Source of the DNA: Nostoc sp. DedSLP01
Lineage (GTDB): Bacteria > Cyanobacteriota > Cyanobacteriia > Cyanobacteriales > Nostocaceae
DNA length: 64,000 nucleotides
Assembly: GCA_034530875.2 (NCBI GenBank)
Contig: JAVRCJ020000017.1
Span: 130,930 to 194,929 of the forward strand
Direction: 5' to 3'
Below are positions 6,234 to 13,262 of the stretch, one piece after another. Under the pieces are notes generated by a model. The model ran no database searches, was not told the DNA's origin, and saw nothing but the letters and a program-made list of their open reading frames with translations. A program made the translations under genes and the position numbers. Each line of letters begins with the position of its first letter. The stretch's first letter is position 1.

Positions 6234-6305
6234 GCCCGTGTGGCTCAGTGGTAGAGCACACCCTTGGTAAGGGTGAGGTCACGAGTTCAATCCTCGTCAC
6301 GGGCT
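6234..6305 (+). tRNA. tRNA-Thr(GGT), integration site
   Basis: GCCCGTGTGGCTCAGTGGTAGAGCACACCCTTGGTAAGGGTGAGGTCACGAGTTCAATCCTCGTCACGGGCT; anticodon GGT. Confidence 0.96.
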
Positions 6306-6307
6306 TG
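6258..6307 (+). repeat. attL core (50 bp)
   Basis: ACACCCTTGGTAAGGGTGAGGTCACGAGTTCAATCCTCGTCACGGGCTTG, identical to 13213..13262. Confidence 0.95.
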
Positions 6308-6692
6308 TCCTAGAGAAATCTAGTAGTCCTAAAGCACCTTAACTTGTCCTAAGGCTGTCCTAAGCTTAAGACAGTTTAAGCCGCTTGGCAATATTGGCTC
6401 CTAGAGGTACTAGAGTACCAATGCGGTTAAGTGCAACTAAATAGCCCTTAAAATCCGCAGGATGCTTACAGGGTGGGACTTTACACCTACAACATCCACG
6501 TTCACCTCAGTTGTCCTCTGGCGATCGCACAGAGTCACTATAAGGGTTACAAGAGACTACAGGGATATCAAAAATCCCCTAGATGGTTTGTTATCTCTAA
6601 GGGATTTTAGGGGTAATCTGGGGGATTCTGGAAGATTCTGAGGGGATTACTTGATCATGGGGTAGATTTCCCTCATCATTCCCGTAGTGCGC

Positions 6693-7163
6693 CTAGTTGT
6701 CCCCGGTATCATCAGGAAGCCCCATTGATTCCTCTAGGCTTCCAATATTGAAGGTTACATGCGTCACAGGGTCAGGCTGGTTGTACTGTAGTTGATACTT
6801 CAGAAGCCCCGATGCAGTCTCAATCATTTCTCGTAGTGCCCTGGCGGTGCTTAGGTCGCCAGTGGTCTTAAAGGAATCACTCAGGACATCTACAGTATAC
6901 AAGGTGGTCTTCAGTAGCCCCTTGAGCTTATCTGAGTCCGATAAGTCATCATAGCTATTGGGGTCTACAGGGGTATTTAGGGTAGCCTTGGGTAATGTCT
7001 TGTCCTTATAGCCATAAATCTGCCTAGCTGTTACCTTATGGCCTCTGGCTACTAGCCATTTAGCGATCGCTGGTGCTGGGATGCTTTTAGCTAGCTGTGC
7101 GTCTACAGCTTCCCTGATGTCATCTGGTAGTAGCTCGACTACACAGGATTTCTTATTAGCCAT
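6693..7163 (-). CDS. DUF3486 / Mu gp27-like protein, possible terminase small subunit
   Basis: N-terminus KKSCVVELLPDDIREAVDAQL...IAKWLVARGHKVTARQIYGY resembles the gp27/DUF3486 HTH pattern; the remainder is helical. Confidence 0.5.
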   Translation of the reverse strand: MANKKSCVVELLPDDIREAVDAQLAKSIPAPAIAKWLVARGHKVTARQIYGYKDKTLPKATLNTPVDPNSYDDLSDSDKLKGLLKTTLYTVDVLSDSFKTTGDLSTARALREMIETASGLLKYQLQYNQPDPVTHVTFNIGSLEESMGLPDDTGDN

Positions 7164-7414
7164 TATTTACCCCTTAGATTTCTAATCTGTGCCCAGTACA
7201 TACTGCGCTGATCACAGGCTTTAATCCTAGATGCAGCTTGGCTTTCCTTAGTATCTTTAGATGCGTCTTGGCGCTCCTTAAAATCCCCAGATGAGGCTTG
7301 CTTGCGCCCCAATATCTCTAGTAGCCTCCGTCTTTGCTCAGGGGTTAGTTGGCGGTATAGGGATTTCTGTTTAGGATTTAGGGTTTTTAAAATAGCTAGT
7401 TGCTTAGGGGTCAT
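7163..7414 (-). CDS. Hypothetical basic protein
   Basis: 83 aa ORF whose stop overlaps the next start (TAATG); repeated (L/M)(T/N)P(K/E)Q helical units. Confidence 0.6.
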   Translation of the reverse strand: MTPKQLAILKTLNPKQKSLYRQLTPEQRRRLLEILGRKQASSGDFKERQDASKDTKESQAASRIKACDQRSMYWAQIRNLRGK

Positions 7415-7535
7415 CGGGGTATCCTTTGGTCTTTGGCGTTGTCTGTATACTTATTTAGTCCTGGGTGATTGGTATCCTTGACCTCAGTTATTTACCAGAA
7501 TAGACTGAGATGAGTAATATTAGATACCAGTAAAG

Positions 7536-8036
7536 TTGATGCTAAATAACCTCATAAAGTTGATTAAGAAGAACCCTAGAGAAGCGGTAGTTATATTAAT
7601 AATCTTATTGATTCTGTATTCAGGGGCACATCAGCCCCCCAACCAGTCACAGGGACAAGCCCAAACTCAAGCCCAGGTCAGTGATCCGACCGATTATGTG
7701 GATGATGAACCCTTTGATAGTAGCGAGTGTAAGGTTTATTATGCTGGTGTGTTATTGGGCGCTAATGTATTCCGATTCCGTCATGGCTCCAGTGGGACAT
7801 ACCTAATGTTTACAGATAGCGATCAGTTGGTAAATAAGGCTCAAAACAGAGGTATAGATATTTGGCTGGCTAGATCGGATTTCCTAAATATGCTAGGTAG
7901 TGACCTAATGCAGCAGATGGAGCCAGAAGTTAGGGAGGTATTTGCTAGAAGACTAGATGGCGCTAGTTATGTGGCTGTAGTGGATGATAGCTTGATTACT
8001 AGAGCGAGTGGTGCTGCTAATGATTGTGTAAGGTAG
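7536..8036 (+). CDS. Hypothetical membrane-anchored protein (element cargo)
   Basis: N-terminal hydrophobic helix AVVILIILLILY, Gln-rich linker, then a globular domain. Confidence 0.6.
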   Translation: MMLNNLIKLIKKNPREAVVILIILLILYSGAHQPPNQSQGQAQTQAQVSDPTDYVDDEPFDSSECKVYYAGVLLGANVFRFRHGSSGTYLMFTDSDQLVNKAQNRGIDIWLARSDFLNMLGSDLMQQMEPEVREVFARRLDGASYVAVVDDSLITRASGAANDCVR

Positions 8037-8118
8037 GGCTTTACAGATTAAGCCCTCGGTGATTATCTAGAGGGATGCCGGACGCAGAGGGGCTATCTAG
8101 CCCCATCCTGATTATCTG

Positions 8119-9006
8119 TTAGGCAACTCCGGTGGATATAGCCGCATAATCTATCTTTCTGAAGTATCCTGTTTGATTCCAAATGCTATTATCCTGCTTG
8201 ATAAAGTGTGTCCATACTCCCTCAATACAGATGTCTAGTACTGTTCGGTTAACCAGATCTTTGTAATCTATGCCAAAGGTTTTATGTAGGTACTCTGAGG
8301 TAATGCCCGGTGTCCAATCTTCTACTAACTCTTCATCTTCGCCGTTTCGGTACTTATAGGGATCTTTACCTCTACCATTGTTAGCCTTAACTTCCTCTTC
8401 CTCTGTGTCCCAGGTTTCCGGGTCATACCCATAGGTTGTACCCAGTGGACTCATAAAGTAACCCTCTGGGCTAAGTGTTAAATCCCCTAGATCCGTCTCG
8501 ATAATCCAGAAGGACATTCTACCTGTCTTTGTTTTACCCTCTTTGGTTATGATACCTAGATCAGGGTGGTATCTATACTTATCTTTTCGCTTGTTATCAT
8601 CTTTACTCCAGTATTGCTCAATACACTTACTGGTTAATAATATTGAGTACCTAACAGTTGACTGCTTAGTTACCTCTTGCCCTGGCTTAAACTGATGCTC
8701 TGGCTCATCTTTTTTCTTGGTTAGTTCTTCCCTGATGGCTCTGTTTTCTTCGCTAAGTTTATGGATCTGAGCCTGTAGCATATCCAGTGCGTTCTGGGTA
8801 TCCAAGGCTACCTCTGTGATTGGTCTGTTGCCCTCTAGTTGTTCTTTGACTTGCTGTGCAGCATCTAAGGACTGGTAAACCTTGCCAGATAATGAATCCC
8901 TAATCGCATCTATGATGAACTGGTGCTTACTTGTGCCAGTTGTTTGTATAACGGCCTTGATCTGTTGTTCTAGTTCTTCAGTTAATCTAAGAGTCATGTT
9001 AGCCAT
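8119..9006 (-). CDS. RHH + coiled-coil + unknown C-terminal domain protein
   Basis: MANMTLRLTEELEQQIKAVIQTTGTSKHQFIIDAIRDSL is an RHH pattern. ATG 9006 has a GGA-rich RBS; the ORF track starts at 9024. Confidence 0.7.
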   Translation of the reverse strand: MANMTLRLTEELEQQIKAVIQTTGTSKHQFIIDAIRDSLSGKVYQSLDAAQQVKEQLEGNRPITEVALDTQNALDMLQAQIHKLSEENRAIREELTKKKDEPEHQFKPGQEVTKQSTVRYSILLTSKCIEQYWSKDDNKRKDKYRYHPDLGIITKEGKTKTGRMSFWIIETDLGDLTLSPEGYFMSPLGTTYGYDPETWDTEEEEVKANNGRGKDPYKYRNGEDEELVEDWTPGITSEYLHKTFGIDYKDLVNRTVLDICIEGVWTHFIKQDNSIWNQTGYFRKIDYAAISTGVA

Positions 9007-9130
9007 TTTCTTCCTATCCCCCACTTATATTTAGTATGATACCATGATACCATGTTATATATAATCTGTCAGATTTGGGGCGATCGCTAAGATTGGCTGT
9101 GAAACCCTTACCACGCTTAGGTTTTTACTT

Positions 9131-9835
9131 TTATCCCCCTCTCTTAGGTGGTATGATACCAGATACCACTTAGAAATAAGCCATAGAAATATTCTATGAT
9201 TGCTATAGACTTTTACCTATGGATTCTTAGTACTTTACTGGATCCTTATTCTATCCCCCTCTTATCTGTGGTATGATACCAGATACCATAACCTAGATAC
9301 CGCAGGATAAAAAATGACATTTTATAGATATAGTAATATAATGATATATAGTTATATAGTTAAATGGTTATGAAAAAGTACACAACATTACTCAGACTTC
9401 CAGAAGATGTTAAGGGGCTACTAGAAGCCGCCAAAGCTATTACAGGTAAGTCTCAGCATCAACTAATCCTAGAGGCTATTCAAGAGGCTCTAGGGGGCTA
9501 TCCAGCCGCCCAGCTTACCATTTTAGACAGACTAGATAAAATAGAGGCTCAACTATCCGCATCAAAGTAGCCCATAATACCTATCCTATCTCACTTATTC
9601 CCAGGTATTACCTGGGTTTTCTATTTGGTATCATATCTTGTGGTATCTGGTATGATACCATTAATAAGAGAGAGATAGAATATTATTAGATATTTTAAAG
9701 GTATTATAATATTTTTAATGGTATCTGGTATCATACCGTTAGAGAGAGGGGGGTAGTACAAGTATTCTGGATTGTCCCTATCTTGATACTAAAATAGTGG
9801 TATCTGGTATGACACCACTAAAGAGAGGGGGATAG
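9131..9835. repeat. Five 38 bp iteron/operator-like repeats in divergent orientation
   Basis: Copies at 9131-9168 and 9251-9288 (minus) and 9641-9678, 9719-9756, 9798-9835 (plus). Approximate consensus TGGTATCTGGTATSATACCA-N5-AGAGGGGGATAG-like. Confidence 0.9.
9364..9570 (+). CDS. RHH (CopG/Arc-like) regulator with short coiled coil
   Basis: KYTTLLRLPEDVKGLLEAAKAITGKSQHQLILEAIQEAL; followed by the hairpin CCCAGGTATTACCTGGG and a T run. Confidence 0.75.
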   Translation: MVMKKYTTLLRLPEDVKGLLEAAKAITGKSQHQLILEAIQEALGGYPAAQLTILDRLDKIEAQLSASK

Positions 9836-10003
9836 TATAGAAGTTTGACTGATTAGGGTTATTAAGGGTCATTATTTAGTTCCTTTGGTTATTTGAAAGC
9901 CATTATTTGAATCCTTGGGCACTTAGCCCGGTTGTTTGTGTACTTTTAATACTTCTTTGGTCTTTGGGGCAACTAGCTGGTTACTAGTTGCCCTATTTGA
10001 TGT

Positions 10004-10153
10004 CTAGTCCTCATCCTGAATGCTCAGGTAAAGCCCGATCGCATCTCTGATAATCTCTGAGACAGGCTTCTGTTTTTTATTGCTTACCCGTAGTAGCTTT
10101 GTCTGTACATCGGTGGATAATCTAAGTGTCTGTTGTGCGTCTTGTCTTTTCAT
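10004..10153 (-). CDS. Small CopG-like RHH protein (49 aa, not in ORF track)
   Basis: Hand translation MKRQDAQQTLRLSTDVQTKLLRVSNKKQKPVSEIIRDAIGLYLSIQDED; downstream hairpin GGGCAACTAG...CTAGTTGCCC. Confidence 0.7.
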   Translation of the reverse strand: MKRQDAQQTLRLSTDVQTKLLRVSNKKQKPVSEIIRDAIGLYLSIQDED

Positions 10154-10374
10154 TGGTGTATTTCTTTTGCATCGCTTATCTTTACTTTGTCAGATCCAAT
10201 ATTCAACAGTAGAATCAGGGTTCTAGCCTCTGGGTGTCTCTGATTTCCCCTGTTAAACCTTAAGAGAATCTAAAGATAATCCTAAGTCTGCCTTGATCGC
10301 CTGGGGTAGTAGAACCCACTAAGAAGCCCCAGGAAGTTATTAGACTTCCTGGGGTTACTTGTGCGTTTTAAGAC

Positions 10375-10605
10375 TTAACCGATATACCAGATGTAGATTT
10401 TTCTTGCGTTCTTTCTTCTAGGGGTTAGTTCCCACCAATCCATCATTTTAGCTTCGCGGCAGAAGTCATCAACCATATTAAGTGTTCCGTCCCAATCCCA
10501 ACCTGTCGATTCCATAGCTTCTAGTATTCTGTCGAGAACTTTTTCAACTACAGCCACATCATATCTAGTGGTGTTTACAGGGATTTGTGCAGTTAGATTA
10601 GACAT
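10375..10605 (-). CDS. Hypothetical protein
   Basis: 76 aa ORF with upstream GGAACATTTTA (also upstream of 11971) and a downstream hairpin at ~10327-10354. Confidence 0.55.
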   Translation of the reverse strand: MSNLTAQIPVNTTRYDVAVVEKVLDRILEAMESTGWDWDGTLNMVDDFCREAKMMDWWELTPRRKNARKIYIWYIG

Positions 10606-10691
10606 GATAAAATGTTCCTAAGATTTAAATGTTTTGATTACCAGGAGGAGCCGTTAACTTCTCTTGGTTTTTTACTTTGGGAAATCAACTT

Positions 10692-10838
10692 TTAGGTCAA
10701 GTTGGTATTTGGAAGAATCTTTACTTTGATGTATGCGTTGAGTGAGACAGTCTGACCTTGGGTGTTACTGTATGCCAACTGAGCTTCTAGCAATCTTTGG
10801 TATTCCTCATCCGTCAGTCGAACCGTTATGTGTTTCAT
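10692..10838 (-). CDS. Small MobC/RHH-like protein (48 aa, not in ORF track)
   Basis: Hand translation MKHITVRLTDEEYQRLLEAQLAYSNTQGQTVSLNAYIKVKILPNTNLT; strong RBS GGGAGGTAA. Confidence 0.7.
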   Translation of the reverse strand: MKHITVRLTDEEYQRLLEAQLAYSNTQGQTVSLNAYIKVKILPNTNLT

Positions 10839-11020
10839 TTACCTCCCTGAACTCTATACATCCATAGTAGTCAGTTTAGTTTATGACTACATTAGTAACA
10901 TTACTGTACTTTTAGATATTTTATTTACCTAAATAACTCTCAGCATTCTATTGAAAAACCCCCAGAAGTCCTAGTGAACACTGGGGTAGTATTTAAGGAA
11001 ATATTAGATACTCTTTGACT

Positions 11021-11695
11021 CTATAAATCTCTACCTAGCACACTGTTGATATAAAACATATCTTCAGTGGTCAAATCAGAAGCGTCTGGTACACCTAAAG
11101 GATTTACTCTGGATAGCTCAACTAGTCTGACCAAATCCTGTACTCTTCTGGAGAAACCAGCATGAGAGTAATCATCTGACCAAAAACCACCTTCCTTCAG
11201 AACAGAATCGAGCACAACCTCGAACCACTCGAAACCGCCAATAGGGTCAAAGTTATTCCCGTCTTCACCATGTAGCAAAGTAAGAACTCCTTTGTACAAC
11301 TCTTGGGGGCTACTGTAGGTCTGTCCGCGCCATGTAAGCCCCCCATTACCTATTCTGAAGGTAGAACTTTCTACCCCGGTGTACTCATGGGATAACAGAC
11401 CAATCACAGTTCTAATAAACAAATCTTGACCTTTGGCTTGCCCTAAATCTTTCACTGTGCGTTCATAGACTTTCGGATAGTTTGTAGAGTCCAATAAGCC
11501 ATACTTGATACCTTTTTCGATGACATTATTGTTAAACTCATGAACTCGATTTTGGCTCATTTGTCCCTTAATCTTTTCAGCCATAAGCTGTTGTTCCTTG
11601 GCTTTGGCTTGAGCCGCCTTAGCATCTAAAATGGCTTGTGCCTCGGCCATTTCAGCTTTCAAATCTGCCAACCATTTTTCATTATTGATTTCCAT
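11021..11695 (-). CDS. Hypothetical protein with N-terminal coiled coil
   Basis: 224 aa ORF with upstream AAGGAA RBS; no motif recognised. Confidence 0.7.
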   Translation of the reverse strand: MEINNEKWLADLKAEMAEAQAILDAKAAQAKAKEQQLMAEKIKGQMSQNRVHEFNNNVIEKGIKYGLLDSTNYPKVYERTVKDLGQAKGQDLFIRTVIGLLSHEYTGVESSTFRIGNGGLTWRGQTYSSPQELYKGVLTLLHGEDGNNFDPIGGFEWFEVVLDSVLKEGGFWSDDYSHAGFSRRVQDLVRLVELSRVNPLGVPDASDLTTEDMFYINSVLGRDL

Positions 11696-11709
11696 TTTTT
11701 CGTAGTTCC

Positions 11710-11971
11710 TTAGTATTTTTCAGAGTTAATCAAATGTTGAGCGAGGAAGTTCAAAACTTGGGTATTTTCTGCCAGTTGTACCTCAATGCGTTCAAGAGTT
11801 TCCTGGGTTTTATCTTGGCGATCGCTGAGGTCTTTAATGTCCTTCCGAAGTTGCGTTGGCGATAAGGTAACGGATTTGGGCTGCCATAGAGATCCCATTA
11901 GTTGTAGAAAGGGATTTAAGTTTGTTGTAGATATGTTCATCAAGGGTTATAGGTAGTTTTTTGTTAGCCAT
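11710..11971 (-). pseudogene. RHH + coiled-coil gene split by a 1 nt frameshift (or a 45 aa RHH gene at 11834..11971)
   Basis: MANKKLPITLDEHIYNKLKSLSTTNGISMAAQIRYLIANATSEGH* continues in the +1 frame as DIKDLSDRQDKTQETLERIEVQL...; the span is 262 nt = 87 codons + 1. Confidence 0.6.
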
Positions 11972-12025
11972 AAAATGTTCCGTGTATCTAAATAATGTCA
12001 AGTTAGATATCCTAAGTTAGTCAAC

Positions 12026-13135
12026 CTAGCCAAGAGTTATATTCGGTAACTCTGGGCGGTTAACCAGATGAGCGTAAGTTTGCATAACCATTCGGGTGTC
12101 TTTATGTCCGAGTAAATATGCCACCCCGGTGATCGGCGTACCTTGGTCTATGGCATGACTAGCAGTCGTGTGCCGAGTAGTATACGGTCTTCGGTAATCT
12201 ACACCGACTCTAGTTAATACCTTAATCCAGTATCTTTCTCTGAAGTTACCGTCATCTATTGGTTTTCCTTTGACTGTAGTAAATACTAAGGAATCCTGGT
12301 CAGGTTTAGGAGGTTTGATTGACCACAAGAGTAGGCGTAACTCATCAGTCATTGCTAGATGTCTGCTGCTACCCGTTTTAGTCTCCTTTCTGACCCTCTG
12401 ATAACCATTACCAGCCCAGTCTCTAGAGAGACTTTCATGGATAGTTACAAGCCCTTGGTCAAAGTCCACATGACGCCAACATAACCCAATAGCTTCAGAT
12501 GTCCTAACACCTGTAGCCAGTAAAAACTTAACAAAAGGCGCGTAGTGCATGGCTGACTCTTCAAAGCCCTGAATGATTGCTTTAATCTCTCTGGAGGTAA
12601 AGGGTTTGATCGGTTTAGCGTACACCCTGCGGGTTTTTAGCCCGTCATAGGGGTTACTAGTAACCAAGTTTTTGGATACAGCCCAGCGATAGCATCTTTT
12701 CAAATAACCCAGGCGTTGATTAAAAGTTGAGGCTCCTAAGTTGGATTGGGTCAGCCATGTGGTATCTATCAAGTCTGGGTTAGCTTTAACAATCTGCTGC
12801 CTAATGGCTTTGTAGTGATGCTGTCTGGTAGCTCTTGAAAGGTTGAGGCTGTCTACCCAGTTATCCCACAGTTCTAGCAGCATTTGAGGTTTTGACACCT
12901 GGCTACTGGATTGTATAGATTGCTTTGGGGCTAACCGATAACGGTTTAGCGTCGGGTCAAAGTTCTTAGCTAGGATGTCATTTTGTATTTGGCTGGCGAT
13001 CGCTTGTGCTGTTTTTAAGTCCCTGTTGTTGGTAAACTGCCCCCCAGGTATAGGGTTAAAGCTGTACCGTTTACCACCCACAGAAAACTTTAGTTGAATA
13101 GACCCGTTATTATTAACTGGCTTGATTTCCCTCAC
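12026..13135 (-). CDS. Tyrosine recombinase/integrase with N-terminal arm-DNA-binding domain
   Basis: Catalytic R (TGVRTSE), K (KETKTG), YTTRHT, LLGH and Y (MQTYAH). N-terminus SIQLKFSVGGKRY...DILAKNFDPTLNRY. Confidence 0.95.
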   Translation of the reverse strand: MREIKPVNNNGSIQLKFSVGGKRYSFNPIPGGQFTNNRDLKTAQAIASQIQNDILAKNFDPTLNRYRLAPKQSIQSSSQVSKPQMLLELWDNWVDSLNLSRATRQHHYKAIRQQIVKANPDLIDTTWLTQSNLGASTFNQRLGYLKRCYRWAVSKNLVTSNPYDGLKTRRVYAKPIKPFTSREIKAIIQGFEESAMHYAPFVKFLLATGVRTSEAIGLCWRHVDFDQGLVTIHESLSRDWAGNGYQRVRKETKTGSSRHLAMTDELRLLLWSIKPPKPDQDSLVFTTVKGKPIDDGNFRERYWIKVLTRVGVDYRRPYTTRHTTASHAIDQGTPITGVAYLLGHKDTRMVMQTYAHLVNRPELPNITLG

Positions 13136-13212
13136 TGTCCTAACCCTGTCTTAAAGGTTGTGCTAGGACTTGGTAAGGTGCTTATAGGTAAAGCTTTTTG
13201 AGTTACAAGGCT

Positions 13213-13262
13213 ACACCCTTGGTAAGGGTGAGGTCACGAGTTCAATCCTCGTCACGGGCTTG
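13213..13262 (+). repeat. attR core (duplicated 3' part of tRNA-Thr)
   Basis: Identical to 6258..6307. Confidence 0.95.

Follow-up and report, generated by a model that had tools for sequence, protein, structure and literature searches.

Phage satellites of cyanobacteria are known, within the literature that we searched, from marine picocyanobacteria only. The PICI-like tycheposons of Prochlorococcus were described as the first cyanobacterial phage-inducible chromosomal islands (PICIs) (bioRxiv 10.1101/2020.12.28.424599). [quoted passage not shown] Here we analysed a stretch of 64,000 nucleotides from Nostoc sp. DedSLP01 (contig JAVRCJ020000017.1, positions 130,930 to 194,929; hereafter the window), which carries a 7-kb island integrated at a tRNA-Thr gene. 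The island is a member of a modular Nostoc family of small integrative elements. Most of the sister islands encode a helicase of the VapE type or a primase-helicase, whereas this copy carries a cassette of repeats, ribbon-helix-helix (RHH) genes and a gene termed o4 instead. No published description of these Nostoc islands was found in a literature search that left subscription papers and supplements aside.

The island is a real and intact element, bounded by attachment (att) repeats. The features that define its two ends are as follows, in coordinates of the window.

6234 to 6305, forward strand: tRNA-Thr(GGT), the integration target (ARAGORN, Rfam).
6258 to 6307, forward strand: att core, tRNA-side copy, 50 bp exact (repeat comparison).
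6305 to 6375, no strand: cluster of YTGTCYTA octamers, candidate arm-type sites of the integrase, mirrored at 13135 to 13183.
6693 to 7163, reverse strand: o1, the family marker, a helix-turn-helix (HTH) plus a helical hairpin, putatively like a small terminase subunit (TerS) (profiles, model).
12026 to 13135, reverse strand: tyrosine integrase with an arm-binding domain (PF00589, E = 4.6e-24; weak match to Arm-DNA-bind_2).
13213 to 13262, forward strand: att core, distal copy (repeat comparison).

A preliminary description of this DNA had reported a perfect 50 bp att duplication and an integrase with its catalytic motifs, and both were confirmed. The repeat is exact without extension on either side and represents the 3' part of the tRNA gene. 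The integrase has the motif residues R211, K253, Y318-x-x-R321, H344 and Y354, with YxxR standing where HxxR is usual. Six of the 11 octamer matches in the whole window sit at the two island ends, which makes them candidate arm-type integrase sites, and a 20-bp inverted pair joins 6332-6351 to 13164-13183. Thirteen open reading frames (ORFs) were scanned in Pfam, PHROGs and NCBIfam. As had been stated, none of them matched a capsid, tail, relaxase or primase family, apart from two stray weak structural labels in PHROGs and Pfam (E = 0.025 and 0.11).

A profile of o1 matched 26 of the 127 genomes of the genus, 25 of them strongly, and eight of 401 genomes across the order, mostly weakly. All 25 strong loci were retrieved for comparison. 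Twenty of these are closed by att repeats and measure 4.4-11.7 kb; four of the other loci lie at contig ends or are broken, and L064 was recovered in two pieces. A search of tRNA-Thr genes for the same gene order had been suggested; five of the closed islands are located there, and the others at tRNA-Cys (11), tRNA-Val (one) and a protein gene (three) that we take to be dprA. Integrase type tracks the att site. On the o1 tree, neither att site nor replication type sorts by branch, so modules have been swapped between islands. The median dN/dS was 0.21 for o1 (65 of 231 pairs past the saturation filter), 0.24 for o4 (7 of 21 pairs), 0.26 for the C-terminal domain of o4 (13 of 21) and 0.20 for the core gene o9 (15 of 153). 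Such purifying selection weighs against decay.

Some further features of the related islands may be recorded here. The islands at the presumed dprA gene (L051, L052 and L057) are integrated inside it and restore the 3' portion of the gene. Islands at tRNA-Cys and at the dprA site, unlike those at tRNA-Thr or tRNA-Val, have o1 followed by a 190-aa gene (L017:11219-11791 and 14 others), which gave no family match and shows a PD-(D/E)XK-like motif when read by eye. A second integrase gene stands beside the first in L018, L020, L056, L061, L136 and L138, which suggests nested or fused elements.

The slot that holds the replication gene in the sisters is occupied in this island by the following features.

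8119 to 9009, reverse strand: o4, candidate replication initiator composed of RHH, coiled coil and a beta-rich domain (model, homologs; dN/dS 0.24).
9012 to 9288, reverse strand: left repeat set of three copies (9012-9051, 9129-9168, 9249-9288), the first degenerate, spacing 117-120 bp.
9290 to 9369, no strand: A+T-rich stretch (78%) between the repeat sets.
9370 to 9570, forward strand: o5, RHH protein between the repeat sets, 42% identical to the o4 RHH over 36 aa.
9640 to 9839, forward strand: right repeat set of three copies (9640-9682, 9718-9760, 9797-9839), spacing 78-79 bp, opposite orientation.
9789 to 10003, reverse strand: scar, consisting of the leader (stable hairpin, z = -4.2) and the first ~11 codons of the family replication gene, running into the outermost repeat.

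In the sisters, the gene after the o6-type RHH gene encodes either a VapE-like helicase (E down to 6e-63) or a 1050-aa primase-helicase. Among 21 o1 islands, we counted VapE in 12, the primase-helicase in one, the repeats-o5-repeats-o4 cassette in six and neither in two, one of which retains a 63-aa VapE stub; no island had both. A helicase is thus found in none of the six o4 islands, in contrast to 13 of the 15 others (Fisher p = 5e-4, related islands not being independent). Islands with the cassette are spread over all three o1 clades and two att sites, and the scar junction is common to two other o4 islands in the same slot. The family helicase gene has been replaced here by the repeat/RHH cassette. 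Because the leader and the first codons survive, the absence of a primase is a replacement rather than a primitive state; the primase-less state had been noted correctly at first, although its derived nature had been missed. The leader (9880-10005, reverse strand) is conserved in up to 19 sister islands, and its hairpin is possibly a terminator or attenuator before the replication gene.

The iteron-like array mentioned in the preliminary description resolved into two opposed sets of three repeats. Their 20-bp core comprises a 13-bp palindrome and an extra half-site, followed by a purine tract. With up to three mismatches, the core occurs seven times in the 8.57-Mb genome, five of them in the island; four to six copies are present in each of the eight o4 loci and none in the 21 others. 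Full-length o4 was found in seven of 127 genomes (in one of them frame-broken near its end) and in one metagenome island. It joins an RHH-coil unit, of which stand-alone versions lie upstream of the helicases in sisters, to a beta-rich domain found only in Nostoc. The o4 protein (model with a pTM, the predicted template modelling score, of 0.35) gave no Pfam or fold match, including none resembling RepA_N, and nothing at E<=0.001 in Foldseek. No match appeared in plasmids or phages, nor any usable ESM feature match, and a structure search (VIA) listed only the helical N-terminal part, with the beta domain at Z 3.5 at most.

Opposed iterons around an A+T-rich centre constitute the origin layout of Staphylococcus aureus pathogenicity islands (SaPIs) (PMC9371898), and the RepA of PLEs is an initiator without a helicase that depends on the helicase of the helper phage (PMC7145576). 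We incline slightly towards a replication initiator and origin, as opposed to a partition or autoregulation device, for the o4 cassette, because of its position in the replication slot, its exclusivity with helicases and its repeat layout.

We next consider the link of the family to phages, which depends on o1 and on the tape measures of related islands. The o1 model consists of an HTH and a helical hairpin (mean predicted local distance difference test, pLDDT, 67; pTM 0.35), which is the layout of TerS proteins. Its best viral fold match in Foldseek was a TerS (E = 0.049), with six named TerS among the top 50. By ESM features its neighbours were clusters of viral proteins (0.95), one cluster in which gp27 makes up 28% (0.92) and DUF2280 (0.91). 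The gp27/DUF3486 likeness proposed at first for this terminal ORF did not hold for the single sequence, but it did for the N-terminal HTH when profiles were aligned with each other: HHalign of o1 against 11 cyanobacterial gp27 proteins gave a probability of 82% over 51 HTH columns, whereas 12 other island families stayed at or below 1.9% and 30 column shuffles at or below 0.56%. Conversely, o1 proteins made up ten of the top 15 hits of a gp27 profile over 2271 island ORFs. Among the gp27 loci listed, gp27 is directly followed in five of ten by an ORF of 438-495 aa, which we take to be the large terminase subunit (TerL), and the best two o1-profile matches among 2573 prophage-region ORFs were 188-aa genes adjoining TerL (E = 0.08). 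The gp27 of phage Mu is presumably a small terminase subunit, although a literature look-up did not confirm this. The comparison of o1 with solved structures returned generic helical hairpins only (best Z 8.3), and a PDB profile search nothing under E = 0.07. When three proteins of the o1 family were compared with 50,697 phages by tblastn, no match fell below E = 3; no member of the o1 family was found in IMG/VR. The profile alignments with gp27 indicate that the HTH of o1 is homologous to that of Mu gp27-type proteins, and on balance we consider a TerS function of o1 fairly likely. A distant o1-like HTH gene adjoins a gene with a telomere-resolvase domain in another family (L069 / L034:95-2046).

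The tape measure in the sisters is the best phage link of the family. A tape-measure-like protein of 569-634 aa, of the myophage type, is complete in five related islands (L020, L022, L064, L133 and L135), and two further islands contain fragments. Over 99% of its length it aligned with the protein annotated as tape measure in Leptolyngbya phage Lbo402-yong5 (E = 4e-15 at 21.8% identity), and it also matched proteins of all seven Nostoc regions that were retrieved from 18 weaker places (E = 1e-22 to 1e-33). Of these regions, three have genes for terminase, portal, capsid and sheath, another two have sheath, tube and baseplate at least, and the last two are reduced. Strains G030 and G009 contain an island as well as a related prophage. 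In a tree the island proteins group as a separate clade, all of them shorter than the eight phage proteins (653-830 aa), and their frames are open at the tRNA-Thr, tRNA-Cys and tRNA-Val sites. Three of the five tape-measure islands also contain o1, and L135 additionally the o4 cassette. In these five islands no tail chaperone was recognised, the neighbour that was scanned being RHH-like, and no baseplate hub was seen. Two prophage-like regions (L101 in G436 and L104 in G031) combine a tape measure with one tail protein and gave no sheath, capsid or terminase match; they are possibly another class of reduced elements.

We consider it quite probable that the island family comprises satellites of tailed phages. 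For the complete mechanism, in which such a family has in addition replaced its helicase by a repeat/RHH origin and initiator, we estimate a probability of roughly 50%. Phage infection would release expression from the RHH repressors, and the integrase would excise the island as a circle. The o4 and o5 proteins would bind the palindromic repeats via their RHH domains and open the A+T-rich centre, and the C-terminal domain of o4 might recruit a helicase of the host or the helper, as the RepA of PLEs relies on that of its helper. As a small terminase subunit, o1 would redirect the large terminase of the helper to island DNA. Likely helpers could be contractile-tailed temperate phages similar to the Nostoc prophages, arriving from outside this strain. 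A more detailed proposal describes capsid-less Nostoc satellites of contractile-tailed temperate cyanophages, in which a gp27-type TerS redirects packaging, an own tape measure shortens the helper tail in some members, and one branch including this island replicates by a new initiator (an RHH repressor plus a beta-rich domain) from an operator amplified into an iteron origin; taken as a whole, we regard this as doubtful.

Several observations weigh against the satellite mechanism. Single-sequence searches with o1 were not significant (Pfam gp27 E = 0.14, PHROG TerS E = 0.33), Foldseek returned nothing for it at E<=0.001, and its alignment with gp27 is limited to the N-terminal HTH. The o1 profile also scores HTH proteins of plasmid mob regions (E = 1e-4 to 4e-4), and the gene in TerS position of Lbo402-like prophages reached a probability of only 10-18% against o1, with the reverse profile finding no o1. 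The C-terminal domain of o4 gave no homolog or fold of known function, as judged from the full-length model. One study that may be the source of this DNA comprises three DNA runs in which read depth is flat between island and flanks (467 versus 470/452, 463 versus 461/455 and 190 versus 186/185); their contigs break at the 50-bp repeat, so that a circle is neither visible nor excludable. A comparison of the island with 59 phage loci showed no common DNA, and hence no packaging site was seen. Nothing in this genome matched the tape measure of the islands, and three family models together with 19 prophage protein queries detected no terminase, capsid or portal in it, only sheath and wedge matches. 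Prophage TerL occurs in nine of the 127 genus genomes and is absent from this one. The helper-dependent satellite of the preliminary description is partly supported, namely by the family gene set (integrase, helicase and gp27-like end gene), the tape measures of sisters and purifying selection; no helper terminase was found in the host genome with these queries. Four host contigs (C1, C39, C46 and C52) contain homologs of sheath and baseplate wedge without head genes, which are likely contractile injection systems.

The family could consist of phage satellites whose o4 cassette serves in maintenance or regulation, either as an autoregulated effector or as a centromere-like array to which RHH proteins act as adaptors; this copy would then be unable to replicate itself or would be copied in trans. 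Plasmid partition and autoregulation typically involve RHH proteins bound to arrays of palindromes, a degenerate repeat lies directly upstream of the o4 start, and the o4 RHH is homologous to the stand-alone RHH-coil regulator of the helicase-type sisters; two o1 islands without either replication module and the missing amplification in the three DNA runs agree with such a device as well. Against this stand the exact placement of the cassette in the replication slot, never together with a helicase across three o1 clades and two att sites, and the lack of a partition ATPase. We hold this explanation to be rather unlikely. Somewhat less likely still are integrative elements independent of phages, similar to cargo tycheposons and spread by vesicles, transformation or a conjugative helper, for which o1 would be an ordinary HTH regulator and the tape measures captured cargo. 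The many RHH/NikA-like genes have a plasmid-like character, the o1 profile matches mob-region proteins too, a full tape measure is found in five islands only, and 419 of 501 tycheposons have no packaging genes (bioRxiv 10.1101/2020.12.28.424599). However, the tape measures of the islands are a clade apart, and their frames are open at three kinds of tRNA site, o1 combines an HTH-hairpin layout with viral neighbours, and the scanned ORFs gave no relaxase match and little recognisable host-benefit cargo.

The preliminary description had also named decayed fragments of large prophages or plasmids as an alternative. Reduced prophage-like regions do exist in the genus, several sisters have broken genes, and the o1 locus L059 lies ~6 kb from a broken TerL. 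We read this TerL as accreted neighbour DNA, because it lies beyond broken integrase pieces. Decay is nevertheless largely refuted and very improbable: matching att repeats close off 20 islands of 4.4-11.7 kb, the same genes are found together at four sites, dN/dS is 0.20-0.26, and in a comparison of 36 island gene families with prophage regions only the tape measure and the primase-helicase matched, plus a few small or weak cases. The satellite mechanism with a replaced helicase is the explanation that we prefer.

The remaining genes of the island are listed below.

7163 to 7414, reverse strand: o2, a small protein, basic and helical, that many family members share (gene cluster K4).
7536 to 8036, forward strand: o3, accessory protein with a hydrophobic N-terminal stretch (sequence; found in 8 islands).
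10004 to 10153, reverse strand: o6, RHH, precedes VapE in sisters (PHROG; relatives).
10375 to 10605, reverse strand: o7, travels with o8 (island gene clusters).
10692 to 10838, reverse strand: o8, RHH-like, weak (Pfam; relatives).
11021 to 11695, reverse strand: o9, core gene with a coiled coil and a conserved domain (gene cluster K2; median dN/dS 0.20).
11710 to 11943, reverse strand: o10, coiled-coil ORF overlapping o11 in the +1 frame (frame test).
11834 to 11971, reverse strand: o11, RHH, Arc-like (Pfam, PHROG; relatives).

The five RHH genes reported initially (8119-9009 in its N-terminus, 9370-9570, 10004-10153, 10692-10838 and 11834-11971) are all RHH-like, but as weak matches: none reaches the Pfam cut-off itself, the best E-values being 9e-4 in Pfam and 8e-5 for a PHROG Arc-like family, and 10692-10838 is the weakest call. 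Close relatives of 10004-10153 and 11834-11971 do reach the RHH_1 / RHH_5 cut-offs. The proposal that RHH proteins take the place of HTH repressors was borne out, as these genes stand where PICIs have HTH regulators and no AlpA, MerR or Stl homologue was detected among the 13 ORFs at E<=1. The core gene o9 gave no phage match. No match to a capsid-morphogenesis gene was obtained in the family searches of the 13 ORFs, in which o9 and o2 received no assignment. The o10 and o11 frames overlap by ~35 codons (11710-11971, reverse strand), and 10 of 13 homologs keep the +1 frame open, for each of which synonymous shuffling puts the chance at 0.2-4%, the kin among them not being independent. The overlap would represent either a true overlapping gene or a programmed frameshift yielding an RHH-coil fusion.

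The o3 protein has no family match and, judged by its hydrophobic stretch, is likely membrane-anchored; that it acts as an exclusion factor is a guess. The corresponding slot of the sisters, flanked by o2 and the replication module, contains variable small proteins whose N-termini are hydrophobic and which may be exclusion factors that are exported. An Rfam scan revealed no RNA besides tRNAs. The G+C content of the island (42.0%) is close to that of the genome (40.9%), and CTAG is 2.6-fold enriched inside the island at 6308-13212 (7.5 versus 2.9 per kb). The five HIP1 sites given previously (6521, 7063, 9080, 11818 and 12996) are all positioned correctly, with a density of 0.72 per kb versus 0.89 per kb genome-wide. 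They had been thought to indicate long residence in cyanobacteria; the related islands carry 4-12 sites each, and the sites reflect a cyanobacterial adaptation of the family rather than a long residence of this copy.

These islands occur in about a fifth of Nostoc species, in a genus with candidate helper prophages and culturable hosts, so that satellite biology would become testable in nitrogen-fixing symbionts. The tape-measure islands would extend tail remodelling to cyanobacteria. The o4 cassette offers a natural swap experiment, and if it is a true functional replacement of the helicase, it would define a new class of initiators, with an operator turned into an origin.

Compared with PICIs and SaPIs as outlined in bioRxiv 10.1101/2022.09.14.508007, the island has a similar organisation, with a size in the range of ~7-12 kb, an integrase at one end, a TerS-like gene at the other and a replication slot between; it also resembles SaPIs in its opposed iterons (PMC9371898). 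In the SatelliteFinder scheme of the same preprint, where a capsid-morphogenesis gene is optional outside Proteobacteria, the integrase and the chromosomal att site of the PICI core set are present, whereas the AlpA/MerR/Stl-type regulator is missing, as is a primase-replicase, of which there is the scar only (13 of 21 o1 islands have one); the family searches detected no capsid-morphogenesis homolog. Because regulator and primase-replicase are lacking and the weakly supported TerS match is confined to the HTH, we did not file the island as a PICI. PLEs are likewise capsid-less, have their own tape measure, as do some related islands here, and use a helper-dependent initiator without a helicase, which provides the analogy for o4 (PMC12987554, PMC7145576). 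They differ by a large serine recombinase in place of the tyrosine integrase, by a RepA_N initiator unlike o4 and by the tail chaperone and baseplate hub missing beside the tape measure here, and no sequence kinship was shown. [quoted passage not shown] The PICI-like tycheposons are cyanobacterial elements integrated at tRNA genes, Thr-GGT included; their tyrosine integrases are site-specific, their replication modules can be exchanged, and a subset has TerS (bioRxiv 10.1101/2020.12.28.424599). The tRNA-targeted tyrosine integrase and the partial-tRNA repeat in a cyanobacterium are shared by our island, and the Nostoc islands differ in their terrestrial or symbiotic host, RHH-dominated regulation, the helicase-less o4 cassette and the tape measure of some members. 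By analogy, the island would come closest in its working to the PICI-like tycheposons, to which some members of its family add a feature known from PLEs.

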